A stretch of 64,000 nt of DNA from the NCBI GenBank assembly GCA_021786315.1, contig JAJYNN010000002.1:270997-334996 (forward strand). The letters run 5' to 3'. Shown here piece by piece: positions 10,167 through 54,340 of this stretch. How positions within the stretch are numbered: position 1 is the stretch's first letter; the number at the start of each line of letters is the position of its first letter. The translations under genes and the position numbers were made by a program. The DNA comes from a bacterium (GTDB lineage Bacteria; Patescibacteriota; Microgenomatia; Daviesbacterales; UBA10151). The notes below the pieces were generated by a model. The model was not told where the DNA came from, did not search any database, and saw only the letters and a program-made list of their open reading frames with translations.

Positions 10167-12038
10167 ATGCCAACAAAAGAAGGAAGTAGCCCCCAACAGA
10201 TTCTGGAAGTATACGGAATGCCACCAGTGAGAAAAGAAAATTATTTTGGACGCGGCGCTATCAACCTGCTTGCTCCGTTAGACTACAAGATGAGCATGTT
10301 GATCGGGGATCCGGATAGCGAAACGGCAATTATTACGGCTTGGGGTGACCCTTGGCACGCTTTACCCGAGGATATAGTGAAGGAATGCTCGGTAGCTGCC
10401 TCTCTAAGAATTCCCTGGGGTGTGGATTTAATGCTGCACAATTTAGCCAGTAATCCCCATATTCGGAGGGTGGGAATTTATGCCGCCGGGAAAAACGACA
10501 ACACCGAAACCGGGCAGATGCCTCTGGGTATTACCCGATCTTTGTGGACTAATGGAGTAACAGATGAGGGTGGGGTTATTGGCACTGGCCATAAACTTTC
10601 TCCGGAGCTGGTAAACGACGGCGCTATTGAAGCTGTCAGAGGTGTTTTAAATAATGTGGAGCTGTGTGAGTGGAGCCATCTTTCCCCGGAGGAATTATTA
10701 CAGGAAATTCAAAGATTCCCAAAGGTTGGACCATATGGGGAGAAGGTAGTGCTTCCGGAATTTAAAATCCAGGAAGTGGATACCTGGCCATCAGAGCTGG
10801 AGGGGCTAGTGGTTCGCAGGAGAGGAGCTTTTAATGCTTGGTTGGGAATAATTTCATCTATTATGCGTTATGGGCGGGAAGCATGTTTAGAAACAGCTAC
10901 CAGTATTAAGATTAAGGAACTTCCCTTTGTTCGGGTGGTGATTGAGGGCGAGAGGCCCTTTGATGATATTCCCCAATGGGCTTTGGACCTAAAAGCAGTA
11001 TCAATCACTCCTGAGGGATTGGAAGACTATTACCAAAGAATTTTTAGACCCGAGAGGCACCTCAAGGAGATCTTTCCTGGAGTGAAAAAGTTTGAAAGGC
11101 CAAAAGAGGAGAAGTATTTGTATGGGGAGTTAATCCATGCTTTTCCTAGGGATGAAAAGTACACCCGGGCTGTGTTGGAGCTGGCAAAACAAAGCGGCAT
11201 TCAAGTTACCAGGCAATTTTTGCGGGGTCTTGCTGGAGAGGCTACCGAGCAAATGGAAGAAACTGCTGACAGTGTTATTTCGGCAAAAGATTTGGATCCA
11301 GTACAACAAGCAGAGATTTTGCTAGAGGTGTATACACCAAGAACGAATCAGGTAGCCAAGGCTATCGAAAGAATCCGCCAGATTCCTGATGATGCCGATA
11401 AAACCTTTATCCTCTGGGATCCGGAAACCCATGGGATGCAATACCGGGGCAGACCATGTCTTTTGGAAATGGGACTTTTGGTAAGAGATGGGGCAATTTC
11501 CGGAAAAGCCGTCTTCCGGACGCATGACATGGCTAAAGGCTGGTTGCTCAACGCTTATGGAATCTGGAGAACTGTTGAGGATATTTGTAAAGAAACCGGC
11601 TATAAACAAGGTCCTCTGGTCATGGAATCGGAATCAGCTCATTTCTACAAAGGCGATATCAATTGGGTTAATGAGCTTTGGCAACAAGAGGTGCTCACTA
11701 GAGATATAGCTAAGCGGTTTGATTCAGCAAAGGCTGATCCCCGCGGTAACATTGTTGTGGATATTACCCCCGATAACAGGGTAGTAGTGAAGCTGACTGA
11801 CCCAAAGAGCGGAGCTACTATTCATAAATTTGAGGAAGATTCTGCCCGAGAGGCTCTTGCCCGTTTATCTCAGGAAGAAATTATTTCTCAACCCGGACAT
11901 GGTCTAGATATTGGTTTGCAATTAGGAGTTTTGGAGGTTGCCAGAAGATTGCGGGGAAAGGGTGTTGATATAGTCTTTACGCAAGATCAACCGTTTAAAA
12001 CTTGGGGAGCAGTTGAAGCAGAAGTAATAAAGGACTAA
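10167..12038 (+). CDS. divergent thymidylate synthase/dCMP-hydroxymethylase superfamily protein, 623 aa with large insertions and a C-terminal extension
   Basis: By eye against E. coli ThyA: IRQIPDDADKTFILWDPE aligns with LKNDPDSRRIIVSAWNVGE. GRPCLLE aligns with the APCH catalytic Cys. FRTHDMAKGWLLNAYG aligns with YQRSCDVFLGLPFNIASY, with the uracil-specifying Asn retained. ESAHFY aligns with GDTHLY. The N-terminus (KENYFGRGAINLL) resembles the TS N-terminal DRTGTGTLSIFG. Confidence 0.65.
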   Translation: MPTKEGSSPQQILEVYGMPPVRKENYFGRGAINLLAPLDYKMSMLIGDPDSETAIITAWGDPWHALPEDIVKECSVAASLRIPWGVDLMLHNLASNPHIRRVGIYAAGKNDNTETGQMPLGITRSLWTNGVTDEGGVIGTGHKLSPELVNDGAIEAVRGVLNNVELCEWSHLSPEELLQEIQRFPKVGPYGEKVVLPEFKIQEVDTWPSELEGLVVRRRGAFNAWLGIISSIMRYGREACLETATSIKIKELPFVRVVIEGERPFDDIPQWALDLKAVSITPEGLEDYYQRIFRPERHLKEIFPGVKKFERPKEEKYLYGELIHAFPRDEKYTRAVLELAKQSGIQVTRQFLRGLAGEATEQMEETADSVISAKDLDPVQQAEILLEVYTPRTNQVAKAIERIRQIPDDADKTFILWDPETHGMQYRGRPCLLEMGLLVRDGAISGKAVFRTHDMAKGWLLNAYGIWRTVEDICKETGYKQGPLVMESESAHFYKGDINWVNELWQQEVLTRDIAKRFDSAKADPRGNIVVDITPDNRVVVKLTDPKSGATIHKFEEDSAREALARLSQEEIISQPGHGLDIGLQLGVLEVARRLRGKGVDIVFTQDQPFKTWGAVEAEVIKD

Positions 12039-40224: not shown

Positions 40225-40689
40225 ATGCCTAAGATTCTTCGTTTAATTTTGGCTGTTTTGCTTTGTGAGGGGGCGGGAATTCTAGGTTCCTTATTTACTA
40301 TTTCTTCAATACCGACCTGGTACGCTACTTTAAATAAACCATTTTTTAGTCCTCCCAACTCTATCTTCGGGCCGGTCTGGACTATCCTTTATCTTTTAAT
40401 GGGTGTTGCCTTGTTTTTAATCTGGGAAAACAAGGGAAGCAAGGGAAGGGCTTTACAGGTTTTCTTTATTCAATTGGGTCTAAACGTGTTATGGTCTCTG
40501 GTTTTCTTTGGCGCTCACCAGCTGCTTTTGTCTTTAATTATCATCGTCGCCTTGTGGTACTTTATTTTCCAAACCATCAAGGCTTTTGCCCGGATAAATA
40601 AAACTGCCTCATATTTGCTTTACCCATATTTGACATGGGTCTCTTTTGCCTTAATTTTGAACTTAGGAATTGTGATTTTAAACCGCTGA
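40225..40689 (+). CDS. tspO: TspO/MBR tryptophan-rich sensory protein
   Basis: WYATLNKPFFSPPNSIFGPVWTILYLLMG, five TM. Confidence 0.82.
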   Translation: MPKILRLILAVLLCEGAGILGSLFTISSIPTWYATLNKPFFSPPNSIFGPVWTILYLLMGVALFLIWENKGSKGRALQVFFIQLGLNVLWSLVFFGAHQLLLSLIIIVALWYFIFQTIKAFARINKTASYLLYPYLTWVSFALILNLGIVILNR

Positions 40690-43050
40690 CTACTTGTATT
40701 TATTCAGGAGACGAAAAGCGATTTCTTTTCTGTTTAAAGTCGGAGGCTTAATGTCTGTCACTGGTTTTTCTTCGTGTCTTTCTTCCTTCTTTTCTTCCCT
40801 TTTTTCCTCCTGTTTAGGTTTGACAGTGGGAGTGGGAACATCAACTACAAAATCGTCAGTGTTAAAAGGCTTTTCTTTACCCACTTTAGTATACCTTTCC
40901 TGGGAAACCTTAATAATCTTCTCCCGGTTTTGGTTTTTGCAGTCAGGTAAAGGCAGGCTTTGGGCCACAAATGGGGAGGAGGTTAGTCCGTCAATGGCCA
41001 TTTTGACAATCATCTGGTAAGTCCCCAAAGAAAGAAGATCAACGTCTTTAAATCTTTCCCCGAACTCCCGGGCTAAAATCGGCGCGTCTTCAGCACCAAT
41101 AATAAAGGACAGCATGGTTCCGGCGTTCCCAAAAATAGCGGACCGGACATGCTCCTCAATTTGGCCAATATATTGGTTAGCCAAAATTAAGTCTAAGCGG
41201 TATTTTCTCGCTTCGGACAAAATTTTGATAAAGCTGGAAGTGGCAAAATTTTGGAACTCATCAACATACATGTAAAAATCCCGGCGCTCCGGTTCGGGAA
41301 TATTGACCCGGTGCATGGCTGCCAGTTGAATTTTGGTGATGATCATGGCTCCCAACAGTGAGGAATTATCCTCTCCGATTTTTCCCTGGGAAAGGTTTAA
41401 GATGACAATCTTTCCCTGATCCATGGCTTCGGCCAGATTAACGGTAGATTTGGGGGAACCAACAATATTGCGGATGACCTGGGAAGAAAGGAACTGGCCT
41501 ACCTTGTTTAAGATTGGCGATATGGCCTCATTCATTTGCTGGGGGGACATCTTTTCAAATTCGTTGACCCAGAAGTTTTTTAGGACCGGATCGGCTAGTT
41601 TATCCACTACTTTTTGACGGAATCTTTTATTTGTCAAAAGCTCAGGAATCATGAGCATAGTAGAATTAGGCACTTCGAGCAGTGTTAAAATCGTATTTCT
41701 TAAAATGTATTCCAGCCTTGGCCCCCATGAGTGGGCATAGAGCTTAATAAAGATGGAAACGATACCGGAGGCCACGAGTTCCTTTTGGGTGGAACTGTCC
41801 ACTTCCAGCGGGTTTAAGTGGAATGGGTGGTCTAAATCGGCAGGGTTTAAGTAAGCGACATCGTTTATCCGGTGTGAAGGAATGTAATCCAAAAGGATTT
41901 CCGATAAATCCCCGTGGGGATCAATAACCGCAATGCCTTCGCCGTTTCGAATGTCGTTTATGGCCATATTGGCAATAAGGGTAGATTTACCGACACCGGT
42001 TTTACCGATGATGTACATGTGCTTGCGGCGGTCAACCTTTCTGATACCAAATGTCGCCGCGGTGTTTTTATACTCTGTTTTACCAAAGAAATTAATTTGC
42101 CCCTTATCCTCGGCGGCGATTCCTTGAGCCACCGGCAGGTTTTCAGGAGGATCAGAAAGAATTGTTTTAGACCAGGAAATATTGCGGATAGATTGCAGTT
42201 TTTCTCCCGGCAAATGGAAAAGGGTAGCCAGTTCCAAAAGATTTAAAATTTGGTTTTGGGGGATGGTCTCACCGGTTCGTCCCAGAATTGCCTTAAGCAT
42301 GGTTTTTTTCTCTAAAAATCCCGGTCCCGCTAAAGCAACACTATTTCCCTGAGGGTTATTGAATCCGGTAAAACAAGCGGCGGTAAGACCTAACAAAGAA
42401 GTATTAGGCCCGGCGGAAAGGATCCTGATCCCGGTTTTAAATCCGGGGTAGGAAATCTTTTCCTGGATAATTTTGGCGTAGGCATTTAAATTAAATGGAT
42501 CCTCGACAGGGGTTCCGTCAGCATTTTTAGAGCCTTTCCGCTCCAAGGCTTGTCGGCCTTTGCTTTGCCATTTATTGCTTTGGGGGATCAGCAAAAATTG
42601 TACCAATACTGTATCTTCCGGCCCAAGCTTGGACATCATCCCCAAAAGGGAAGACATCGGATCAACGTCTTTGAAATCCTTATAAGTCTTTAGGGGGTAA
42701 ACGTTAGGGGATTGAAGCTTGAGTTGCCCGTAAGAATAGGACAGCGGATCTTGAAAGGGAGCCATCATTTGTTCTAATTTAACGGGGGTGACCAAGGCCC
42801 GGGGGTATTGGGAGAGCAATTGGCTCTCGATAAATGATTGGTAGGAGGTGGGGATAACTACATAAAAGTGGATGGTTTGGTTAAAAGCTACAATTTCAAA
42901 ACTTAAAGGAAGCTCGGGAGCGCTTTTCCAAAAAGACCCGGATTTGGGGGCTTTAAGCTGAACAAGACTCCCAAAGAATTGGGCCATGGCCTCTGGGGTT
43001 TCTGTTCCCGTGCGAGGTGTTCTGATCTCGAGGGCAATTTTATTATCCAT
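40690..43050 (-). CDS. TraD/TraG/VirD4-family P-loop ATPase (type IV secretion coupling-protein-like), no N-terminal TM anchor
   Basis: 786 aa. Walker A IIGKTGVGKST and Walker B FYMYVDEFQNF. C-terminal ANQYIGQI...SAIFGNAGTMLSF is typical of the TrwB/TraD all-alpha and ATP-binding regions. Charged C-terminal tail. Confidence 0.65.
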   Translation of the reverse strand: MDNKIALEIRTPRTGTETPEAMAQFFGSLVQLKAPKSGSFWKSAPELPLSFEIVAFNQTIHFYVVIPTSYQSFIESQLLSQYPRALVTPVKLEQMMAPFQDPLSYSYGQLKLQSPNVYPLKTYKDFKDVDPMSSLLGMMSKLGPEDTVLVQFLLIPQSNKWQSKGRQALERKGSKNADGTPVEDPFNLNAYAKIIQEKISYPGFKTGIRILSAGPNTSLLGLTAACFTGFNNPQGNSVALAGPGFLEKKTMLKAILGRTGETIPQNQILNLLELATLFHLPGEKLQSIRNISWSKTILSDPPENLPVAQGIAAEDKGQINFFGKTEYKNTAATFGIRKVDRRKHMYIIGKTGVGKSTLIANMAINDIRNGEGIAVIDPHGDLSEILLDYIPSHRINDVAYLNPADLDHPFHLNPLEVDSSTQKELVASGIVSIFIKLYAHSWGPRLEYILRNTILTLLEVPNSTMLMIPELLTNKRFRQKVVDKLADPVLKNFWVNEFEKMSPQQMNEAISPILNKVGQFLSSQVIRNIVGSPKSTVNLAEAMDQGKIVILNLSQGKIGEDNSSLLGAMIITKIQLAAMHRVNIPEPERRDFYMYVDEFQNFATSSFIKILSEARKYRLDLILANQYIGQIEEHVRSAIFGNAGTMLSFIIGAEDAPILAREFGERFKDVDLLSLGTYQMIVKMAIDGLTSSPFVAQSLPLPDCKNQNREKIIKVSQERYTKVGKEKPFNTDDFVVDVPTPTVKPKQEEKREEKKEERHEEKPVTDIKPPTLNRKEIAFRLLNKYK

Positions 43051-43734: not shown

Positions 43735-44340
43735 ATGGCAAAAACGATTTTCGGTATTTTTAATAACCGGGATGATGCTGAAGAAGCTATCAATAGGTTA
43801 AAGGATCAAGATTACAACCCCAAGGATATGTCCATTGTTATAAGAGATACGGGGGAAGCCCGCGCCATGAGCGAAGACATGGGGGCAAATATCGGCGGGG
43901 GAGCTGTTTCCGGAGCTGCAACCGGAGGGGTTATCGGCGCAATCGCCGGCCTTTTAATCGGAGTGGGAGCAATTGCCGTTCCGGGAATCGGCGCGCTTTT
44001 AATAGGCGGGCCTTTGGCGGTCGCTTTGGGATTGACGGGCGCAGCTGCCACAACGGTTTCCGGCGCCTTGACCGGAGTTCTGGCCGGAGGTTTGGTGGGC
44101 GCATTGGTTAGTTTAGGAATTCCGGAAAATGAGGCCCGGGTTTATGAAGAGAGGGTCAAAAGTGGTGCAATTTTATTGGCCGTTCCGGCTCGGGATGGGG
44201 AAGAAGAGGAGGTTAGAAATATCATGGAAGATACAGGAGCAACTAACGTGAGCACGGTTTCGATGAGCCACGACCATTACGAACATCATCGGGATGAGGA
44301 AGAAAGAAAAAGAGATGATGATGAGGATGATATGGAGTAA
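43735..44340 (+). CDS. YflT/GSP17M-like general stress protein with a Gly-zipper membrane segment and an acidic tail
   Basis: N-terminal MAKTIFGIFNNRDDAEEAINRLKDQDY (YflT-like). GxxxG-rich TM region. C-terminus DDDEDDME. Confidence 0.55.
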   Translation: MAKTIFGIFNNRDDAEEAINRLKDQDYNPKDMSIVIRDTGEARAMSEDMGANIGGGAVSGAATGGVIGAIAGLLIGVGAIAVPGIGALLIGGPLAVALGLTGAAATTVSGALTGVLAGGLVGALVSLGIPENEARVYEERVKSGAILLAVPARDGEEEEVRNIMEDTGATNVSTVSMSHDHYEHHRDEEERKRDDDEDDME

Positions 44341-44399: not shown

Positions 44400-44555
44400 A
44401 TGGCTAAATATGGACCCAAAACCCAGGAAGAAGTACACAAAGAGTTGCACGAACACAAACATGAGGGTAAATGGAAAAACCGCAAACAAGCAATCGCCGT
44501 AGGTTTATCGGAAGCCCGGGAAAAAGGATATAAAGTTCCCCCAAAAAAGGATTAG
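44400..44555 (+). CDS. small basic hypothetical protein (51 aa)
   Basis: Strong SD aaggaggtg 8 nt before the ATG. MAKYGPKTQEEVHKELHEHKHEGKWKNRKQAIAVGLSEAREKGYKVPPKKD. Below the 60-aa cutoff of the ORF track. Confidence 0.4.
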   Translation: MAKYGPKTQEEVHKELHEHKHEGKWKNRKQAIAVGLSEAREKGYKVPPKKD

Positions 44556-44579: not shown

Positions 44580-45047
44580 ATGAAAAAAGTACTACTCTCC
44601 CTAGTAGTTATTTTAGGGTTTGCGTTTTATGCTTTTGGCCAAAAGGACAAGGAAGGCCAGGCTAATGAGGTTGGTGTATTGCCGCTTCCTACCCCAGCTG
44701 ATACAGGTACTCCGATATCTGACCAGAATATTCCTGCTCAGACAAATCCTCCGGCATCCCCGGGAAAATATCGGGATGGTGAATATACGGGTGATTCTGC
44801 TGATGCTTATTACGGAAATGTCCAAGTTAAAGTGGTTATTTCCGGCGGGAAAATTAGCGATGTTCAATTTTTAGATTATCCACGCGATAGGCGGACTTCT
44901 CAGCTGATTAATTCTCAAGCAATGCCGTTTTTAAAGCAGGAGGCAATCCAGGCCCAAAACGCTAATGTCGACATTATCTCCGGTGCTACTGCTACCAGCG
45001 AGGCTTTCAGGCAGTCTTTGCAGTCGGCGTTATCAAAGGCAATTTAA
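44580..45047 (+). CDS. secreted FMN-binding domain protein (substrate of ApbE flavinylation)
   Basis: Signal peptide MKKVLLSLVVILGFAFYAFG. FMN_bind domain with the flavinylation motif DIISGATATS (Dxx[ST]GAT[ST]). Confidence 0.8.
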   Translation: MKKVLLSLVVILGFAFYAFGQKDKEGQANEVGVLPLPTPADTGTPISDQNIPAQTNPPASPGKYRDGEYTGDSADAYYGNVQVKVVISGGKISDVQFLDYPRDRRTSQLINSQAMPFLKQEAIQAQNANVDIISGATATSEAFRQSLQSALSKAI

Positions 45048-45048
45048 A

Positions 45049-45789
45049 ATGAAACAGACCCGGATAATGTGGGATATGCCGATTACGGTAGAGGTTGTTG
45101 ATCCGCAAGCTGCGGAAAAAGATATTGATAAAGTTTTTTTATATTTTGAGGTTGTTGATAAAAAATTCAGCACTTTTAGAAAAGATAGCGAAATAAGCCT
45201 GATTAATGATAAAAGATTAATGATTGATGAAAGCAGCAAAGACATGCAAACTATTTTTAAATTAGCTGGACAAACGAAAAGAGAGACAAACGGATATTTT
45301 GATATTCGGCGGGCTAACAAATATGACCCCTTGGGGTTGGTCAAGGGTTGGGCAATTTTGAATGCGGCCCGGATTTTAGATGAATCAGGTTTTAAAAATT
45401 ATTTTATAGAAGCGGGTGGCGATATTCAGGTTTCCGGAAAAAATAACCAGGGAGAAAGTTGGAAAGTGGGGATCAGAAACCCGTTTAATACGGAACAAAT
45501 TGTCAAGGTTGTCCGGCTTTCTCATGAAGGGATTGCCACATCAGGCACTTATTTGCGGGGAAAACATATTTATAATCCTAAAAATCAATTCAAACCAGCT
45601 GATGAGATTGCCAGTATGACTGTAATTGGACCAAATATTTATGAAGCAGACAGGTTTGCAACGGCTACCTTTGTAATAGGGAAAGAGGGCATTAATTTTA
45701 TTGAAGCACAGCTAAATTTAGAAGGATATATGATTGATAAGGAGGGAGTTGCCACAATGACCTCTGGTTTTGATAAATACGCCGTATGA
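45049..45789 (+). CDS. apbE: FAD:protein FMN transferase ApbE
   Basis: 246 aa. The region ATSGTYLRGKHIYNP is typical of ApbE. Starts 2 nt after the FMN_bind stop. Confidence 0.8.
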   Translation: MKQTRIMWDMPITVEVVDPQAAEKDIDKVFLYFEVVDKKFSTFRKDSEISLINDKRLMIDESSKDMQTIFKLAGQTKRETNGYFDIRRANKYDPLGLVKGWAILNAARILDESGFKNYFIEAGGDIQVSGKNNQGESWKVGIRNPFNTEQIVKVVRLSHEGIATSGTYLRGKHIYNPKNQFKPADEIASMTVIGPNIYEADRFATATFVIGKEGINFIEAQLNLEGYMIDKEGVATMTSGFDKYAV

Positions 45790-47297
45790 ATTTTATCGAT
45801 AACTTTTTGAATAACATTACCATGTATCGATTGGTGCTTTATGTATTAATCGGTTTGCTGGTGATAGCAGCTTTCTTCGGATTGTTAGGGCTTTTACCTT
45901 ATTCACCTTGGGCAATTATTTTCTCGGCAGCTATTTTGGTCCTTGTTTCCTGGATCGTAAATTATATTTTTGCCAAGGTTTATGAGGTTCCGGCTAATGC
46001 GGAATCTTTCTTTATTTCAGCGCTAATCTTGGCATTAATTTTATCCCCGGCTAATAAATTTTCAGATTTGCCGTTTTTAATTTGGGCAGCTGTTTTAACT
46101 ATGGCCTCAAAATACATTATAAATATCAGGGGAAAACATATTTTTAACCCTGTGGCTTTGGCTGTGACTTTAACCTCTTATGCTGCGGGGCAGTCGGCAA
46201 CTTGGTGGGTAGGAAACATTCCTATGTTGCCATTTGTTGTAATTGGGGGGTTATTGATTATTCGAAAAATCAAAAGATTTAACTTCATCGTCACTTTTCT
46301 AATAGTGTCAATTTTGGCAATAGGCATTTTGAGTTTATTGGCAGGTAACGATCCCGCGTCTACCATTAAAAAAACTATTATTTATTCGCCCTGGTTTTTC
46401 TTTGCCTCAGTAATGCTTACTGAGCCGTTAACAACTCCACCCCGGAAATTACAACAGATGATCTATGCCGGGATAACGGGTTTCCTGTTTGCTCCGCAGG
46501 TGCATTTTGGGTCGCTGTATACTACGCCGGAGCTGGCACTTTTGATTGGCAATATCTATTCATATCTGGCAAGCCCCAAAGAAAAGCTATTACTCAAATT
46601 AAAACAGGCCTTAAAGATCGGGCCGGATATCTATGATTTTATTTTTTCCGGGCCGCGGACTCATTATTTGCCTGGTCAATACATGGAATGGACTTTGGGT
46701 TACGGGAATGCAGATTCAAGAGGGAACAGAAGATACTTTACTTTGGCTTCATCGCCGACAGAAGAAGATTTGCGGATTGGAGTGAAGTTTGCTGAAAAAT
46801 CAAGCACCTTTAAAAAGTCTATGTTAGAACTTACTTCCCAAAGCCCGGTTGTGGCAGCAGGATTGGCAGGGGATTTTATTTTGCCCCATGACCCAAATAA
46901 AAAATTGGCTTTTGTTGCCGGGGGAATCGGTATTACGCCTTTTCGGAGTATGCTTAAATATTTAATTGACACCCATCAAAAGAGGGACATAGTTCTTTTT
47001 TATTCGGCAAGAAAACAAGAGGATTTGGTTTATGGGGATGTAATTAACCAGGCGGTTAGGGAATTAGGTCTTAAGGTCGTAGTAACCCTTACCGATACTG
47101 AGCAAGTTTCTTCTGGGTGGGCTGGAAGAACAGGGTATCTTAATGAGCAAATGATTGTAGAGACGACGCCCGATTATAAAGAAAGAACATTTTATATCTC
47201 CGGGCCGCAAGCTTTAGTTTTCTCAGTGAAATCTGTTTTGAAACATACAGGACTAAAAGAGAAACAAATTATTACTGATTATTTCCCCGGATTTTAA
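45786..47297 (+). CDS. membrane oxidoreductase: polytopic N-terminal domain fused to an FNR-like FAD/NAD(P)-binding domain
   Basis: 503 aa. About 6 TM helices with an FNPVALAV (NqrB/RnfD-like NPA[LV]) segment. The C-terminus has RYFTLASSP (the RxYS FAD motif) and VAGGIGITPF (NAD(P)-binding). Confidence 0.65.
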   Translation: MNFIDNFLNNITMYRLVLYVLIGLLVIAAFFGLLGLLPYSPWAIIFSAAILVLVSWIVNYIFAKVYEVPANAESFFISALILALILSPANKFSDLPFLIWAAVLTMASKYIINIRGKHIFNPVALAVTLTSYAAGQSATWWVGNIPMLPFVVIGGLLIIRKIKRFNFIVTFLIVSILAIGILSLLAGNDPASTIKKTIIYSPWFFFASVMLTEPLTTPPRKLQQMIYAGITGFLFAPQVHFGSLYTTPELALLIGNIYSYLASPKEKLLLKLKQALKIGPDIYDFIFSGPRTHYLPGQYMEWTLGYGNADSRGNRRYFTLASSPTEEDLRIGVKFAEKSSTFKKSMLELTSQSPVVAAGLAGDFILPHDPNKKLAFVAGGIGITPFRSMLKYLIDTHQKRDIVLFYSARKQEDLVYGDVINQAVRELGLKVVVTLTDTEQVSSGWAGRTGYLNEQMIVETTPDYKERTFYISGPQALVFSVKSVLKHTGLKEKQIITDYFPGF

Positions 47298-47368
47298 GGC
47301 CAGTTGACATTTGTCCACAGGATGTTTAATATACAAAACATCTACTATGTGCAATAGTAGATTTATAC

Positions 47369-48094
47369 ATGACTAACCCCCGAAAGAAAAATAATATTCC
47401 ATTATTCCGCGTTGAAAATACATTAGGTTTTTTGGAACTTGAGGTGATGAGAATCATCTGGCATCACAAAGTTACAACGGTTAGGGAAGTGGTTGAGCTC
47501 TTAAACCAAAGAAGACCGATTGCCTATACCACGGTGATGACTGTGATGGATAATTTATATAAAAAGGGATTCCTTACCAGAAAAAAGGTAGAAAAATCAT
47601 ACCACTACTGCCCGGCATTTTTAGAGAAGCACCTCATTCAAGCCACGCTCCGTTTAATCTTCAAAGATTTAGCGTCCCGTTATGGGAAAAGAAAGATTTT
47701 TATGTCTGCTGTCGGAAGCAACTTACCGGAGATGCCTAAAGAAGTAGTTTTGCCTGTTCCGGCAAAAGTTGTGAGAAATTATAAAGCTCCGGTTATTTCC
47801 GGTATTTCTTTAACCCTATTATTTGCCATGCTGTCTTTTTCAGTCTTTGATTTAATGCAAAGTTCACACTCTTCGGGAACCTTGGACTATATAAATTTGT
47901 CAGCTTCTGAACCGTCACTATTTTTAAGCCGGATCCATCTTTTCCTCCTGGCTATTTGGGAAAGTTTGCCGATAGCTAACTTGTCTTTCACCACAATCCT
48001 GATGGCATTGTTTATAATACTGGGAAGAAAAATGTGGCAGCTTTTGAGAATCAACAGAATCCCCTTTAGTTTCTTGGGAGGAATAACCGGATGA
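47369..48094 (+). CDS. BlaI/MecI/CopY-family winged-helix repressor with a C-terminal transmembrane extension
   Basis: N-terminal LELEVMRIIWHHKVTTVREVVELLN...YTTVMTVMDNLYKKGFLTR. The C-terminal half is hydrophobic. Confidence 0.7.
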   Translation: MTNPRKKNNIPLFRVENTLGFLELEVMRIIWHHKVTTVREVVELLNQRRPIAYTTVMTVMDNLYKKGFLTRKKVEKSYHYCPAFLEKHLIQATLRLIFKDLASRYGKRKIFMSAVGSNLPEMPKEVVLPVPAKVVRNYKAPVISGISLTLLFAMLSFSVFDLMQSSHSSGTLDYINLSASEPSLFLSRIHLFLLAIWESLPIANLSFTTILMALFIILGRKMWQLLRINRIPFSFLGGITG

Positions 48095-48546
48095 AAGATA
48101 GAAAAGTTGTTTTAACAGGAGTCGGTATTGGTGTAGGCATCGCCATAGTTTTATTATTGGTTTTTATGGCCGGTGTTTTTTGGGGAGCTCATGGTTTGCG
48201 GTATTCTCCTTTTGGCAGACGGCAAATGATGTCTAGGGGTTTTGTAGCTAATCGTTTAGGTCACGGAGTAGTGGGCACTATCGATTCTCTGGGAAACAAC
48301 ACTTTGGTGGTCAAAGACCGTAATGGCCAGTTAGATACTGTCACAGTTAACAATGACACCGTTATTAGACAGGGCACGGCTCCTATTAAGTTTCCTGATT
48401 TAAAAAAGGATGAAAATGTAATTGTGATTGGGGAGCCACAGAATCAGGAAGGTGCTACTTTGGCTCGGGTTATCAGAGTTATTGAACCTGCTGCTCAAAA
48501 TGCCACTGGGTCAGGCATATTTATCAGGCGAATGGAAGGAATATAA
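48091..48546 (+). CDS. hypothetical secreted protein
   Basis: 151 aa, N-terminal TM. Confidence 0.4.
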   Translation: MKDRKVVLTGVGIGVGIAIVLLLVFMAGVFWGAHGLRYSPFGRRQMMSRGFVANRLGHGVVGTIDSLGNNTLVVKDRNGQLDTVTVNNDTVIRQGTAPIKFPDLKKDENVIVIGEPQNQEGATLARVIRVIEPAAQNATGSGIFIRRMEGI

Positions 48547-48551
48547 GATAA

Positions 48552-49820
48552 ATGAAATTTATGGGGCTAATCAGGCCGGTTACAAAAAAGAAAATACTTA
48601 TTTTAATTTTGGTTTTGGCTGTAGGGGGAGTTTTATACTGGAAAACAATTGGGGCAAAGGCTCAAACTCCCCAATATGAATCACAGCAAGTCGCTCGAGG
48701 AACTGTCGTTTCTTCAATTTCTGCTTCCGGCCAGATCACTTCCGGTTCCAGTATGCCAATTACTTCCCAGGCTACAGGAATTGTGAGTAATGTTTATGTT
48801 AAAGATGGTGATACTGTTCAGGCTGGACAGACAATTGCTGATTTGAACTTGGACTTGGCTTCCCAACAGAAGCAAGCAGCTGCTTGGAACTCATACTTAA
48901 CTGCTAAAAATAATTTAAATAGCGCTCAGGCGGATTTGAATTCTTTACAGTCGGCTGAATTTAAGGCTAACCAAAAATTTATTAATGATGCAGCGGATCG
49001 GGATTTAGCAACAGATGACCCAACCTATATTCAGGAAAATGCCGATTGGTTACAAGCGGAAGCGAACTATAAAAACCAACAAGGGGTGATCGACCAATCA
49101 CAGGCGGCGGTAAGTAGCGCTTGGCTAAATTACCAACAGCTATCCTCAAGTATTACTGCCCCGATTGCCGGAACTGTTAGTGGATTGACTGTCGCTCCGG
49201 GGTCAGCTGTTGTTTCTTCCGGTACAGGCAACTCGCAATCTTTAGGAAACGTCTTGGTAAGCGGCCCGTTACAAGCAGTAGTAGATCTTTCTGAGGTTGA
49301 CGTGACTAAAGTAAAGATTGGCCAAAAGGCAACCTTAACCCTTGACGCTTTTCCGGGAAAAACCTTCGCCGGAAAAGTCGCCAGTATTAATACCTCAGGG
49401 GTTGTTTCATCAGGGGTAACAAATTATCCGGTGACAATTTCTTTGGATTCCTCAACTGATGGCATTTACCCCAATATGGCGGTGACTGCCAACATCATCA
49501 CAGATACAAAGTCTGATGTATTGGTAATCCCTTCGGCAGCAATTCAAAATCAGAATGGGCAGAATACAGTCCGGATTTTAAATAACGGTAAAGTAACTGA
49601 TGTTCCGGTTACTACCGGTATTTCTTCTGATACGGAGATTGAGGTGGTTTCCGGACTTAATGAGGGCGACAATGTAGTAACAGGTGTAATTTTATCAGGC
49701 AGCACAAGTTCATCCGGTACAAGATCGGTGTTTTCTGGCGGCGGCTTTGGGGGTATGGGTGGAGGTAATATGAGGTTTACTACAGGAGGGGGGAACCGTG
49801 GTGGTGCTAGGGGAGGTTAA
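48552..49820 (+). CDS. efflux transporter periplasmic adaptor subunit (MacA/HlyD family) with a Gly-rich C-terminal tail
   Basis: Biotinyl-lipoyl-like hairpin VYVKDGDTVQAGQTIADLN, a long coiled coil and a beta-barrel domain. Confidence 0.8.
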   Translation: MKFMGLIRPVTKKKILILILVLAVGGVLYWKTIGAKAQTPQYESQQVARGTVVSSISASGQITSGSSMPITSQATGIVSNVYVKDGDTVQAGQTIADLNLDLASQQKQAAAWNSYLTAKNNLNSAQADLNSLQSAEFKANQKFINDAADRDLATDDPTYIQENADWLQAEANYKNQQGVIDQSQAAVSSAWLNYQQLSSSITAPIAGTVSGLTVAPGSAVVSSGTGNSQSLGNVLVSGPLQAVVDLSEVDVTKVKIGQKATLTLDAFPGKTFAGKVASINTSGVVSSGVTNYPVTISLDSSTDGIYPNMAVTANIITDTKSDVLVIPSAAIQNQNGQNTVRILNNGKVTDVPVTTGISSDTEIEVVSGLNEGDNVVTGVILSGSTSSSGTRSVFSGGGFGGMGGGNMRFTTGGGNRGGARGG

Positions 49821-49822
49821 GG

Positions 49823-50518
49823 ATGATCCAAATAAAGAACGTTTCCAAAGTCTATCGTAACGATACTGTTGAAACTAAAGCCCTCGATGATGTTGCCTTT
49901 GAAATAAAAAAAGGTGAGTTTGTGGCCATAATGGGTCCTTCCGGATCCGGTAAATCCACCTTAATGCATATTTTAGGGGCTTTGGATACTCCTACCTCAG
50001 GTACCTATATTCTGGATGGTGAAGAAGTGGGTAAACTATCTGATGATAAATTAGCCGAAATCAGAAATAAAAAGATAGGGTTTGTCTTTCAGGCTTTTAA
50101 TTTATTGCCCCGGACAACAGCCATGAAAAATGTGATGCTGCCCATGGTTTATGGGGATGTGGCGAAAAGCGAACGTGAGGCGAGGGCAAAGAAATATCTA
50201 GAGATGGTCGGCTTGGGCGACAGGATGCAGCACACATCCAGCCAGCTTTCCGGCGGACAAATGCAGCGGGTAGCCATTGCCAGATCGCTGGTTATGGATC
50301 CGGCAATTATCTTAGCAGATGAACCAACGGGGAATATTGCCTCTAACCAAGCTTCAGAAATTATGGCCATTTTTCAGGATCTGAATGAACAGGGCCATAC
50401 CATTATTATGATTACCCATGAACCGGACATTGCTGAACACGCCAAAAGGATTATCCATATTAAGGACGGAAAGATTGTAAAAGACAGTGATAAGCATTCC
50501 CAGAGGAGAGCAAAGTAA
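49823..50518 (+). CDS. ABC transporter ATP-binding protein (MacB/LolD-like)
   Basis: Walker [10 protein letters not shown], signature [15 protein letters not shown], and Walker B ILADEPTG. Confidence 0.92.
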
Positions 50519-51741
50519 TGGAATTTGGTGAAATCCTTTCTGAAGCCTTAACTGCCTTAACCATTAATAAAATGCGGACAGGGTTGGCGACTTTGGGAAT
50601 TATTATTGGTATCGGAGCGGTGATTGCCTTAATTTCTTTAGGCCAGTCCGGCCAAAAAGCGGTAGAGTCACAGATCCAGTCTTTAGGCTCAAATTTATTA
50701 ACAGTTATCCCAGGATCACCAAACAGTGGCGGTATCAGGCAGGCTGCCGGAGGATTAACTACTTTAACATACGATGATGCCAAGGCGATTACCACTTCGG
50801 CGACGGTTACCGATGTCGCCAATGTTTCGGCGGAACTTTCCCGGAGGGCACAAGTTACTTCAGGAAAAAATAACACAAACACCCAAATTATCGGAGTAAC
50901 ACCCAGCTATCTTACAGTTCATAACTTATCTATGCAGTCAGGGTCCTTTATTATCCAGAGAGATGTAGATTCTTTAGGGAAGGTGGTGGTTATCGGACCG
51001 CAAGTGGTTAGCGACCTGTTTGGTGACGGATCAAACCCTATTGGCCAGACGATCAGGGTAAACAAATTAGCCCTAAAAGTTATTGGGGTAACGGCTTCTA
51101 AAGGGGGAAGCGGTTTTATGAACCAGGATGATATGGTTTTTGTGCCTTTAACCACGGCCCAAAAACAGCTTTTTGGAGTCGATTACTTAAGCGCAATTTC
51201 TATCCAAGCCAAAAGCGACAAGGTTATGACTGATGCCCAGGACCAAGTGGGTTATCTTTTATTAAGCCGCCACAAAATTGGGAATCCGGCCCAAGCTGAC
51301 TTTTCCATTCTTTCCCAGCAAGACATTATGGGAGCTGCCTCTTCTATCACCGGAACATTTACTGCTCTTTTGTCCGGAATTGCGGCGATTTCTTTAGTGG
51401 TTGGAGGGATTGGGATTATGAACATTATGTTAGTGACTGTGGTAGAGCGGACACGGGAAATTGGTTTAAGAAAAGCACTGGGAGCCAAAAAGAAAAGCGT
51501 TATCCAGCAATTTTTGGTGGAATCAATTATTTTGACTATGTTGGGTGGAGTTTTGGGGATGGTTTTGGGGATGGTCCTTTCTGTTGCAGTCTCTAAAATT
51601 ATTAATTTGCCTTTTGTAATTTCCTTCCAAGCTATTGCCCTGGCTATTGGGGTTTCAGGCGGAATTGGAATTTTATTTGGCTGGTATCCGGCCAGAAAAG
51701 CCTCGAATTTAAGTCCGATTGAAGCCTTAAGATATGAGTAA
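50518..51741 (+). CDS. ABC transporter permease (MacB/FtsX family)
   Basis: N-terminal TM, a periplasmic MacB_PCD domain, and a C-terminal FtsX 3-TM bundle. Confidence 0.88.
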   Translation: MEFGEILSEALTALTINKMRTGLATLGIIIGIGAVIALISLGQSGQKAVESQIQSLGSNLLTVIPGSPNSGGIRQAAGGLTTLTYDDAKAITTSATVTDVANVSAELSRRAQVTSGKNNTNTQIIGVTPSYLTVHNLSMQSGSFIIQRDVDSLGKVVVIGPQVVSDLFGDGSNPIGQTIRVNKLALKVIGVTASKGGSGFMNQDDMVFVPLTTAQKQLFGVDYLSAISIQAKSDKVMTDAQDQVGYLLLSRHKIGNPAQADFSILSQQDIMGAASSITGTFTALLSGIAAISLVVGGIGIMNIMLVTVVERTREIGLRKALGAKKKSVIQQFLVESIILTMLGGVLGMVLGMVLSVAVSKIINLPFVISFQAIALAIGVSGGIGILFGWYPARKASNLSPIEALRYE

Positions 51742-51769
51742 ATTAATTATTGGGATTCTCTGAGGGGAG

Positions 51770-52180
51770 GTGATTTTTATAAATAAAGCATTACCTATTG
51801 TTGCTGTGGGGATAGTGGCGCTTGCCGGAGGATTTTTTGGTGGGATGAAATACCAGCAAACTAAAACTCCTGCAGCTGCCGGATACAGAATAAGACAATT
51901 TCAGGGAAGAATGGAACAAAATTTCCGCCCGGTTAATGGTGACATCATCAGCCAAGATGACAAAAGCATCACCGTTAAACTTAACGACGGAAGCAGTAAG
52001 ATAGTCCTACTTTCCGATAAAACTTCCATCAATGAAGCAACCCAAGCCGCCAAAACTGATTTGCAGGTTGGTAAAAAGGTGGCAGTTTTTGGAAGTGAGA
52101 ATTCTGACGGAAGTGTGACAGCCCAAAGCATACAATTAAATCCAACCGTAAGAATGTTTGGCCAAGGTCAGGGCGGGTAG
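51770..52180 (+). CDS. hypothetical secreted protein
   Basis: 136 aa, N-terminal TM. Confidence 0.4.
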   Translation: MIFINKALPIVAVGIVALAGGFFGGMKYQQTKTPAAAGYRIRQFQGRMEQNFRPVNGDIISQDDKSITVKLNDGSSKIVLLSDKTSINEATQAAKTDLQVGKKVAVFGSENSDGSVTAQSIQLNPTVRMFGQGQGG

Positions 52181-53240: not shown

Positions 53241-53663
53241 ATGTTCAAGTGGATCCAAAGAAACATTATGTATATTGCTTTAGCCCAGGCTTTAGCTGCA
53301 ACTTTAGGCAGTCTCTATTTTAGTGAAATAAAGCATTACACTCCCTGTGTCCTTTGCTGGTACCAACGGATTTTGATGTACCCCCTGGTTTTAATAATAA
53401 CCGTGGGAATTTTAAGAAAAGACAAAAAACTTTACCAATACGTTTTTCCACTCTCAATCCTCGGTTGGTTTATTGCCTTGTACCACAATTTACTCCAATG
53501 GAGGATCTTGCCGGAAGCTGTCGCTCCCTGTACTTTAAGCGGGACCTGCACCGTTCGTTATACCGGCTACTTTGGTTTCATTACCATCCCCCTGATGTCA
53601 CTTACAGCCTTTACAGTGATTAATGTTTGCATGTATATTATGGCAAAGGGGAAGAAGAAATGA
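53241..53663 (+). CDS. dsbB: disulfide bond formation protein B (DsbB/BdbC family)
   Basis: CVLCWYQR, and a second Cys pair in the periplasmic loop (CTLSGTC). Confidence 0.8.
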   Translation: MFKWIQRNIMYIALAQALAATLGSLYFSEIKHYTPCVLCWYQRILMYPLVLIITVGILRKDKKLYQYVFPLSILGWFIALYHNLLQWRILPEAVAPCTLSGTCTVRYTGYFGFITIPLMSLTAFTVINVCMYIMAKGKKK

Positions 53664-54340
53664 CCCAGGAAGTAAAAACTTTATTAATTATTGGAGTAGT
53701 GACATTGGTTTTAGTTGTGGGGGGCATCTTTCTATTAGGTCGGGGAGGCAGCTCATCTTCCGAGATCAATACTCCTATTGATACTAAACTTTTGGTCCGG
53801 GCAGACAGTGACAAGATTGCCACTGATTCAGCAAAAGTCACAGTTGTTGAATTTGGTGATTTTGAGTGCCCGGCTTGCGGGGCAGCCCAACCGGTCACCA
53901 AACAGGTTATTGATGACTACAAGGGAAAGATTGACTATGTTTTCCGTAATTTCCCCTTACCTCAACATGACAAGGCTTTGATTGCAGCTGAGGCAGCGGA
54001 AGCGGCCGGAGCTCAGGGAAAGTATTGGGAGATGCACGATAAGTTATATGAAACTCAAGATACTTGGTCTGTGGCGGATAAGCCTTTGGATTTGTTTGTC
54101 CAATATGCCCAAAGCTTTGGTCTGGATGTAAATAAATTCAGGGATGATGTAACTAATAATAAATATCAAGCTAAAATTACCCAGGATTTTCAGGACGGAA
54201 CGGCTGTTGGGATCCGCGCCACTCCGACATTCTTTATTGCCAAAAATGTTAACGGAGGATTAAGTAACCCGCAAAAGCTTGAAGGAGTACCTACCTACGA
54301 GCAGATAAAGGCCTTAATAGACTCCAAACTTACCAATTAA
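53660..54340 (+). CDS. DsbA/BdbD-like thioredoxin-fold thiol:disulfide oxidoreductase
   Basis: N-terminal TM, CPAC active site, cis-Pro region. Overlaps the dsbB stop. Confidence 0.8.
   Translation: MTQEVKTLLIIGVVTLVLVVGGIFLLGRGGSSSSEINTPIDTKLLVRADSDKIATDSAKVTVVEFGDFECPACGAAQPVTKQVIDDYKGKIDYVFRNFPLPQHDKALIAAEAAEAAGAQGKYWEMHDKLYETQDTWSVADKPLDLFVQYAQSFGLDVNKFRDDVTNNKYQAKITQDFQDGTAVGIRATPTFFIAKNVNGGLSNPQKLEGVPTYEQIKALIDSKLTN

Follow-up and report, generated by a model that had tools for sequence, protein, structure and literature searches.

What would three adjoining genes for flavin-dependent redox proteins do in a bacterium of the Candidate Phyla Radiation (CPR, or Patescibacteria), a group generally regarded as fermentative and devoid of a respiratory chain? 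The question is raised by a locus in a stretch of 64,000 nucleotides (nt) from a patescibacterium of the lineage UBA10151 (contig JAJYNN010000002.1, positions 270,997 to 334,996), hereafter called the window. Three open reading frames (ORFs), all on the + strand, were found at the coordinates given by an initial annotation made from the sequence alone. Gene 1 (44580-45047; 155 amino acids, aa; Pfam FMN_bind) encodes a putative FMN-binding flavoprotein, gene 2 (45049-45789; 246 aa; Pfam ApbE) an ApbE protein, and gene 3 (45786-47297; 503 aa; Pfam NAD_binding_1 and NQR2_RnfD_RnfE) a fusion of a membrane domain with a domain of the ferredoxin-NADP+ reductase (FNR) type. The module probably provides a path along which NAD(P)H drives electrons through an RnfD/NqrB-like membrane domain to a surface FMN_bind protein flavinylated by ApbE, as a member of the NQR/RNF-like class of flavinylation-associated systems.

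The three genes are tightly coupled. Genes 2 and 3 overlap by 4 nt (ATGA), as annotated initially, but the gap between genes 1 and 2 is 1 nt and not 2: the stop codon of gene 1 (TAA, 45045-45047) is separated by a single A from the ATG of gene 2 at 45049. The arrangement recurs in other genomes. Thirty related loci were defined by the presence of a full-length homologue of the fusion protein; 20 of them carry the FMN_bind, ApbE and fusion genes in the same order, and a linked ApbE gene is found in 25. Same-order loci come from CPR, Ktedonobacteria (Dictyobacter, Ktedonospora), Anaerolineae, Mesorhizobium humile and Methylocapsa. Since the same order is kept in two thirds of the related loci and in several phyla, the trio is far beyond chance. 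The domain identities, folds, motifs and conserved gene order described here are direct observations.

The gene 1 product matches Pfam FMN_bind with E = 6.4e-11 (43 bits; cutoff 22). It consists of a hydrophobic anchor (residues 1-22), a Pro/Thr-rich linker (23-62) and the FMN_bind domain (about 63-155). Near the C-terminus of this domain lies the D-x-x-[ST]-G-A-[ST] motif of ApbE substrates of the PF04205 type, in the form DIISGATATS (44970-44999, + strand; residues 131-140). The predicted acceptor of the FMN phosphoester is Thr137 (codon 44988-44990). Conservation of the Thr motif was borne out by an alignment of 20 syntenic homologues with the window protein, in which the acceptor column holds Thr in 18 of the 21 sequences and Ser in the other 3. 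A profile of the domain matches PDB 8P2A (SaFMN3-D2) with E = 1.2e-21, Thr137 being aligned with the SGAT Thr. SaFMN3 of Streptomyces azureus is flavinylated by ApbE in vitro, has a midpoint potential (Em) of -184 mV and reacts with O2 in its reduced form (PMC10339131). D-x-x-[ST]-G-[AS]-[ST] occurs just once more in the window, as DPKSGAT in a 623-aa ORF (10167-12038) that has only a partial thymidylate-synthase match; this occurrence is probably due to chance.

Gene 1 was initially described as a signal-peptide protein with the exact flavinylation motif. The FMN_bind domain and the motif stand; the signal peptide does so only in part. Hydropathy analysis reveals a single hydrophobic segment, residues 1-22, beginning with MKK and peaking at 1.89 in a 19-residue window. 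All 20 aligned syntenic homologues share the plan of MKK, hydrophobic segment, variable linker and conserved domain. The linker varies from about 25 to more than 150 residues, while the anchor sequence itself is kept (MKKxLLSxFVV..F..YA), and no conserved cleavage site follows it in the alignment. Because of this conservation and the lack of a conserved cleavage site, the N-terminus resembles an anchor that stays in place more than a signal peptide that is cleaved off. RnfG and NqrC are laid out as an N-terminal transmembrane helix, a linker and an FMN domain, the latter on the periplasmic side (PMC12174285). Gene 1 has this same layout, as judged from its sequence, and is predicted to play an RnfG/NqrC-like role. 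Export of a pre-folded gene 1 product by the Tat pathway was considered and rejected, as a twin-arginine motif is present in no homologue.

Gene 2 bears out its initial assignment as ApbE, with 135 bits against PF02424 (E = 4e-39; cutoff 25.6). It keeps the family motifs KGWA, AGGD, ATSG, HIYNP and EADRFATA, whose conserved residues we take to be catalytic or Mg2+ ligands. Its best PDB match is E. coli ApbE (4xgw; E = 8e-20), in which HIYNP pairs with HVIDP and EADRFAT with EADAWDT. On these matches, it is assigned to the FAD:protein FMN transferase family. The protein is compact, however: about 50 residues of the helical insertion domain are missing, query residues 86-97 spanning chain residues 104-167 of 4xgw. 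This deletion (protein of about 245 aa) characterizes the window form and its closest relatives, whereas the ApbEs linked to the divergent versions of the module in Saccharibacteria and Actinobacteria are of normal length. In the latter, too, the protein begins right at the domain.

No signal peptide, lipobox or hydrophobic stretch is found in gene 2, the maximum 19-residue hydropathy being 0.73. Most homologous ORFs open a mere 2-9 codons before the conserved MKQTR..MGMP, which leaves no room for a signal, so its absence is not an artefact of start-codon choice. Homologous ORFs that open earlier are extended by Arg-rich sequence that is not conserved. In the window, where the ORF is open back to 44965, agreement with the homologues places the start at the ATG at 45049. 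A longer gene 2 starting from 44965 was rejected, as its 28 extra residues overlap gene 1, are unconserved and contain neither a lipobox nor a proper hydrophobic core. Likewise rejected was a frameshift fusion of gene 1 with ApbE that would export the enzyme; the junction has no in-frame slippery heptamer, and the spacing or overlap varies among loci.

The C-terminal domain of gene 3 (residues ~265-503; 46578-47297, + strand) is an FNR-type FAD and NAD(P)H module. It matches NAD_binding_1 (PF00175) over residues 376-481 (E = 1.6e-16), and NCBIfam matches over residues 285-500 cover the complete FAD and NAD modules of flavohaemoprotein, Fre, BenC and NqrF. Among solved structures, its best sequence matches are the FAD domains of NqrF. 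A full-length AlphaFold model of gene 3, built with 35 homologues (predicted local distance difference test, pLDDT, 87; predicted template modelling score, pTM, 0.83), shows a six-strand beta-barrel after residue 265, followed by an alpha/beta domain. Foldseek retrieves FNR-family structures with it, such as Fre (1qfj; TMt 0.85, rmsd 2.6). The FAD and NAD motifs had been proposed as a check on the domain, and on alignment all of them are kept. RRYFTLAS (46728-46751) contains the FAD motif R316-x-F318-T319, GGIGITP (46920-46940; residues 379-385) is the NAD(P) motif, YISGP (47193-47207) corresponds to Y470-x-S472-G-P and DYFPGF (47277-47294) carries the C-terminal aromatics F500 and F503; all four are on the + strand. 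These columns are invariant or nearly so in the 35 homologues.

The N-terminal domain (residues 1-262; 45786-46571, + strand) has the RnfD/NqrB fold, from which the covalent-FMN loop is missing. Sequence comparison alone recognizes it only in part. The match to NQR2_RnfD_RnfE (PF03116) has E = 4.9e-6, hhalign against E. coli RsxD gives a probability of 92% for a local match over residues 152-257, and a profile search of PDB sequences returns one RnfD only, over the C-terminal half only. The fold is clearer. Since a fold search with full-length gene 3 is swamped by FNR-domain matches, the membrane domain was modelled and searched alone. The AlphaFold model of residues 1-262 (pLDDT 89.5) has about 10 helices, as in RnfD/NqrB, and its top 15 PDB matches by Foldseek are all RnfD or NqrB chains (TMq 0.62-0.72, probability 1.00): RnfD from Acetobacterium woodii, Azotobacter vinelandii and Clostridium tetanomorphum, and NqrB from Vibrio cholerae. 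The next matches are urea transporters, known relatives of the RnfD/NqrB fold (PMC12174285). Thus the NqrB/RnfD likeness noted initially is upheld, but not the count of six transmembrane segments.

Does gene 3 carry a flavin attachment site of its own? GQSATWW (46188-46208, + strand; residues 135-141), which by its position lies at the outer end of helices 5 and 6, had been suggested as a second flavinylation site. This suggestion is not sustained. Relative to the ApbE consensus, the motif lacks the Asp at -6, and it carries Gln at -3 and Ser/Thr instead of Gly at -2. SA[ST]WW[VI]G is strongly conserved in 120 homologues; the invariant residues are W140 and W141, and the would-be acceptor, residue 139, is occupied by Ser in 95 of them, by Thr in 21, by Asn in 3 and by Asp in a single one. 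When the profile is aligned globally with RsxD, FNP (120-122) pairs with FNP (121-123) and QSAT with QMTS (139-142). There follows a 68-residue insertion, found in RsxD only, that holds SQAT with the flavinylated T187, after which the alignment resumes with W140/W220 and the GG..RW helix. This global alignment is forced (overall probability 33%), but its flanking anchors, FNP and the GG..RW helix, are convincing. Because the T187 insertion has no counterpart in gene 3, the family has lost the flavinylation loop, and SA[ST]WW is what is left beside the deletion on its two sides. Huang 2024 states that the membrane subunit of the class lacks the flavinylation Thr of NqrB/RnfD (PMC11334425), and the missing loop agrees with the AlphaFold-multimer model presented there.

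To which known group does the locus belong? The NQR/RNF-like class comprises flavinylation clusters in which an NqrB/RnfD-like membrane domain is fused to PF00175 (Meheust 2021, eLife, PMC8238504); by definition, an ApbE or FMN_bind gene is found at most five genes away from the fusion (PMC8238504). The PF03116-like N-terminus and PF00175 C-terminus of gene 3, together with the adjoining FMN_bind and ApbE genes, fit this definition, and the window cluster is therefore assigned, on sequence grounds, to this published class, known from bioinformatics. The class is reported primarily from Actinobacteria and CPR (Meheust 2021, Huang 2024), so that the module was rated too highly when it was called notable for a reduced-genome bacterium.

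The closest relatives of gene 3 among species-representative genomes are from Amesbacteria, Levyibacteriota and 'Patescibacteria group' (50-55% identity). The fusion proteins of two Ktedonobacteria loci with the same gene order (L003 and L010) are 49-52% identical to it. Counted among 1.84 billion representatives, the membrane-domain family comprises 593 clusters (50% identity) at E <= 1e-30 and 1393 at E <= 1e-10; most members are of about 500 aa, i.e. fused. Families of the RnfA/E, RnfB, RnfC and NqrA/D/E types are not recurrent in the 30 related loci. In the Saccharibacteria and Actinobacteria versions the anchored partner is divergent, S[GS]SSLTP replacing the C-terminal SGAT (L018, 5082-5558; L020, 357-938; also L025, L028, L033 and L034). 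In two further clusters (L055, 7122-9793; L076, 7215-9900) a membrane domain of the haem ferric-reductase type is joined to an FNR module, with genes for FMN_bind and ApbE proteins next in order. Both clusters fall into another published class, 'MsrQ-like', and were found only through the shared FNR motif.

How might electrons move through the module? NAD(P)H would reduce the FAD of the cytosolic FNR-type domain of gene 3, from which electrons would enter the fused RnfD/NqrB-fold membrane domain. By homology to the riboflavin site of RnfD/NqrB, this domain should hold a non-covalent flavin near the cytoplasmic face. The electrons would then reach the FMN that gene 2 is predicted to link to gene 1 through a phosphoester bond at Thr137; the FMN_bind domain of gene 1 would be tethered outside the membrane by the N-terminal helix and the flexible linker. 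As gene 3 has lost the corresponding loop, this domain probably docks in the pocket that holds the covalent FMN in RnfD/NqrB. Judging from its position, SA[ST]WW may line that pocket. Huang 2024 suggests that FMN bound covalently to the small subunit explores the flavin pocket of its membrane partner (PMC11334425). The reduced surface FMN could hand electrons on to an acceptor outside the cytosol, for instance Fe(III), O2 or an oxidant that is soluble or comes from a host. In this scheme the cofactors are assigned by homology; which way the electrons run, how the proteins are oriented in the membrane and what accepts the electrons are inferred.

The core of this scheme, which is also that of the initial annotation, is supported by the domain, fold and synteny evidence, and it equals the function already proposed for the class (PMC8238504; PMC11334425). 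Within it, the module is probably best seen as a cut-down, one-way relative of the RnfC-RnfD-RnfG or NqrB-NqrC part of RNF and NQR. Several points weigh against it. The score of the membrane domain for PF03116, 26.6 bits, is just below the Pfam threshold of 27.7. No acceptor or partner reductase is encoded beside the module, and the genes downstream carry a promoter-like site and an operator-like inverted repeat of their own. In the literature searched, no experimental study of the NQR/RNF-like class was found. In addition, neither the ApbE of the window nor the linked ApbE of any of the 25 related loci with such a gene carries an export signal. Enzyme and substrate would thus seem to be in different compartments unless flavinylation precedes export.

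The flavinylation had initially been called extracytosolic. The pairing of ApbE with a flavoprotein holds, but the extracytosolic site is not secure, because this ApbE, with neither signal nor hydrophobic segment, looks cytosolic while the gene 1 domain is predicted outside. One explanation is that ApbE is cytosolic throughout the class and that FMN is attached to gene 1 before or during export, a possibility that we hold only tentatively. If true, ApbE substrates would have a route of maturation that has not been described for them; neither FAD export nor an exported ApbE would be needed, which would suit minimal CPR genomes. Alternatively, the signal-less ApbE could mean that the accepted view, in which the FMN_bind subunit faces outward, does not hold for this class. 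On either reading, the compact signal-less ApbE linked to all NQR/RNF-like clusters examined would mark a distinct ApbE subfamily. The accessible parts of Meheust 2021 and Huang 2024 on this class hold no statement about a signal-less, shortened linked ApbE.

In the second case, both the FMN_bind domain and its flavinylation would be cytosolic, and gene 1 would shuttle electrons from the FNR domain to a cytoplasmic-side flavin of the RnfD-like domain; the acceptor would then be reduced either at or in the membrane, as a scavenged quinone would be, or on the outer side of gene 3. The ApbE of all 26 clusters (the window and the 25 loci) lacks a signal or hydrophobic segment, and the known signal-less ApbEs are reported for cytosolic substrates only in the literature searched, an example being that of Klebsiella pneumoniae, which flavinylates a soluble cytosolic fumarate reductase (PMC12052999). 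A DsbB gene 6 kb downstream also hints at a quinone-like membrane acceptor, but CPR generally lack quinone synthesis. Moreover, gene 1 and all its homologues start with MKK or MKR followed by about 17 hydrophobic residues, and the Pro/Thr/Ser-rich linker of 25 to >150 residues is typical of exported, wall-spanning tethers. The RnfG/NqrC homologues are periplasmic (PMC12174285), and the AlphaFold-multimer model of Huang 2024 puts the domain outside (PMC11334425). We thus consider both the cytosolic topology and the membrane-side acceptor that goes with it to be quite unlikely.

Two other proposals keep the surface FMN but change what the electron flow is for. The module could supply Fe(II) for uptake as a surface ferric reductase, which would be a special case of the path to the surface flavoprotein favoured here. 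Its arrangement of membrane and FNR domains parallels that of FRE/NOX ferric reductases, six published NQR/RNF-like clusters include a VIT1 iron transporter (PMC8238504) and an FTR1-type iron permease is encoded 1.7 kb downstream of the FMN_bind-ApbE-fusion trio of one related locus (L001, 9196-10020). Yet there is no iron transporter within 8 kb in the window, nor in most related loci, and the genes that recur beside the module in CPR encode a MacB-type ABC exporter and DUF5666 proteins, which makes this specialization unlikely. Less likely still is a minimal redox-driven ion pump, in which the passage of electrons from NAD(P)H to the surface FMN would be coupled to Na+ or H+ movement through an RnfD/NqrB-like channel, providing a membrane potential to an organism without a respiratory chain. 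The whole RnfD/NqrB fold, one proposed ion path in RNF/NQR (PMC12174285), is kept. So are invariant polar residues of the membrane domain (E73, K109, K117, H118, N121, K161 and E213), the last of which lies in TEP, matching TDP of RsxD. With NAD(P)H at about -320 mV and an SaFMN3-like FMN at -184 mV, the difference could pay for about one ion per electron pair. However, RnfA/E (NqrD/E), the other candidate ion path and redox switch, is absent, and the published reading of the class is simple one-way electron transfer (PMC8238504).

The surroundings of the module are those of an ordinary chromosome, with genes for DprA, a Clp-type ATPase, TopA, CTP synthase, ProRS, trigger factor, DnaX, CysRS and glutamate dehydrogenase. 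A Pfam scan of the 41 larger ORFs of the window identifies as neighbours of the module DUF6496, YflT, a BlaI-like protein, DUF5666, HlyD, an ABC ATPase and MacB; adjoining it, RnfA/B/C/E, NqrA/D/E, an acceptor enzyme and an iron transporter were looked for and not found. Upstream on the same strand lie a YflT-type stress protein with a hydrophobic Gly-rich middle (43735-44340) and, directly 5' of gene 1, a 51-aa DUF6496 protein (44400-44555); both genes may be co-transcribed with the module. Farther upstream are a TspO/MBR tetrapyrrole-binding membrane protein (40225-40689, + strand) and, abutting its gene on the opposite strand, a 786-aa TrwB/VirD4-like coupling ATPase (40690-43050). The DsbB mentioned above is encoded together with a DsbA-like thioredoxin at 53241-54340, on the same strand as the module. 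DsbB normally delivers its electrons to quinones, compounds that CPR bacteria are not known to synthesize.

Immediately downstream, the region 47304-48094 holds the gene for a 241-aa protein in which a winged-helix regulator of the BlaI/Penicillinase_R type is fused to a C-terminal membrane region. A promoter-like site (47304-47332) precedes this gene, and 5' of it there is also a perfect inverted repeat, CTACTAT-N5-ATAGTAG (47342-47360; 7-bp arms, 9 bp with flanks), which is likely its operator, as predicted from the sequence. The regulator stands at the head of an exporter operon, HlyD-ABC-MacB/FtsX, flanked by two DUF5666 membrane proteins (48091-52180). Owing to its own promoter-like site and inverted repeat, this operon is probably a transcription unit separate from the flavin module. 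Shared regulation of the two was rejected: near the start of gene 1 the repeat is matched only with 3 mismatches, which is within chance. The HlyD-ABC-MacB and DUF5666 set occurs near the flavin module, in varying arrangements, in the window and in the CPR loci L005, L007, L009 and L029, but not in the Chloroflexota or Alphaproteobacteria loci. This adjacency may mean a functional link or only synteny within a lineage.

The module is one of the few membrane redox devices in CPR, and it may allow them to discharge electrons from NAD(P)H to the exterior or to reduce iron. This point has been made in earlier publications; what the window contributes is a single clean, tightly coupled example and not a new system. 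For specialists, the reading of SA[ST]WW as the remnant flanking a deleted flavinylation loop may be of use, and the signal-less linked ApbE raises the question of where and when the flavin is attached. With proteins of 155, 246 and 503 aa, the trio is a convenient target for laboratory study of the class.

How does the module compare with known systems? Several resemble it in part. The Klebsiella pneumoniae cytoplasmic ApbE has no signal peptide, like gene 2, but acts on a cytosolic substrate, whereas gene 1 starts with a membrane anchor or signal, and the helical-domain deletion of about 50 residues sets gene 2 apart. SaFMN3 (8P2A), a secreted, anchored and multi-flavinylated protein, is of the same FMN_bind type as gene 1 and shares its N-terminal anchor; it has three FMN domains instead of one and a different gene context. 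The NOX/FRE ferric reductases and the Listeria extracellular electron transfer (EET) system (Ndh2-EetAB-PplA-FmnB) are alike in function only, in that NAD(P)H electrons are delivered to an outside acceptor. The outside carrier of the latter, PplA, is flavinylated by ApbE. The transmembrane wire is haem in NOX/FRE, quinone with EetAB in Listeria and, as proposed here, an RnfD-like flavin domain. The scan of 41 ORFs detected no Ndh2, EetA/EetB, DmkA/DmkB or PplA in the window. The likeness to flavin-based EET drawn initially is only one of analogy.

RNF and Na+-NQR share with the module the RnfD/NqrB fold, a partner of the RnfG/NqrC layout with an SGAT Thr and a C-terminal domain whose closest match is the FAD/NADH part of NqrF. 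Nevertheless, the trio is, from its gene content, not RNF or Na+-NQR proper. RnfA/E, RnfB, RnfC and NqrA/D/E are missing from the adjoining genes, as are Fe-S domains; gene 3 has no covalent-FMN loop and has its NAD(P)H input fused directly to the RnfD-like domain; and the proposed electron flow is one-way, not semicircular. The best counterpart is the NQR/RNF-like class itself, exemplified by the two-subunit complex modelled for Ktedonobacter racemifer with the FMN_bind domain placed outside (Huang 2024, mSystems, PMC11334425). Gene content is identical, the NqrB/RnfD Thr is missing in both and the phylogenetic range is the same; nothing essential differs between that class and the system of the window.

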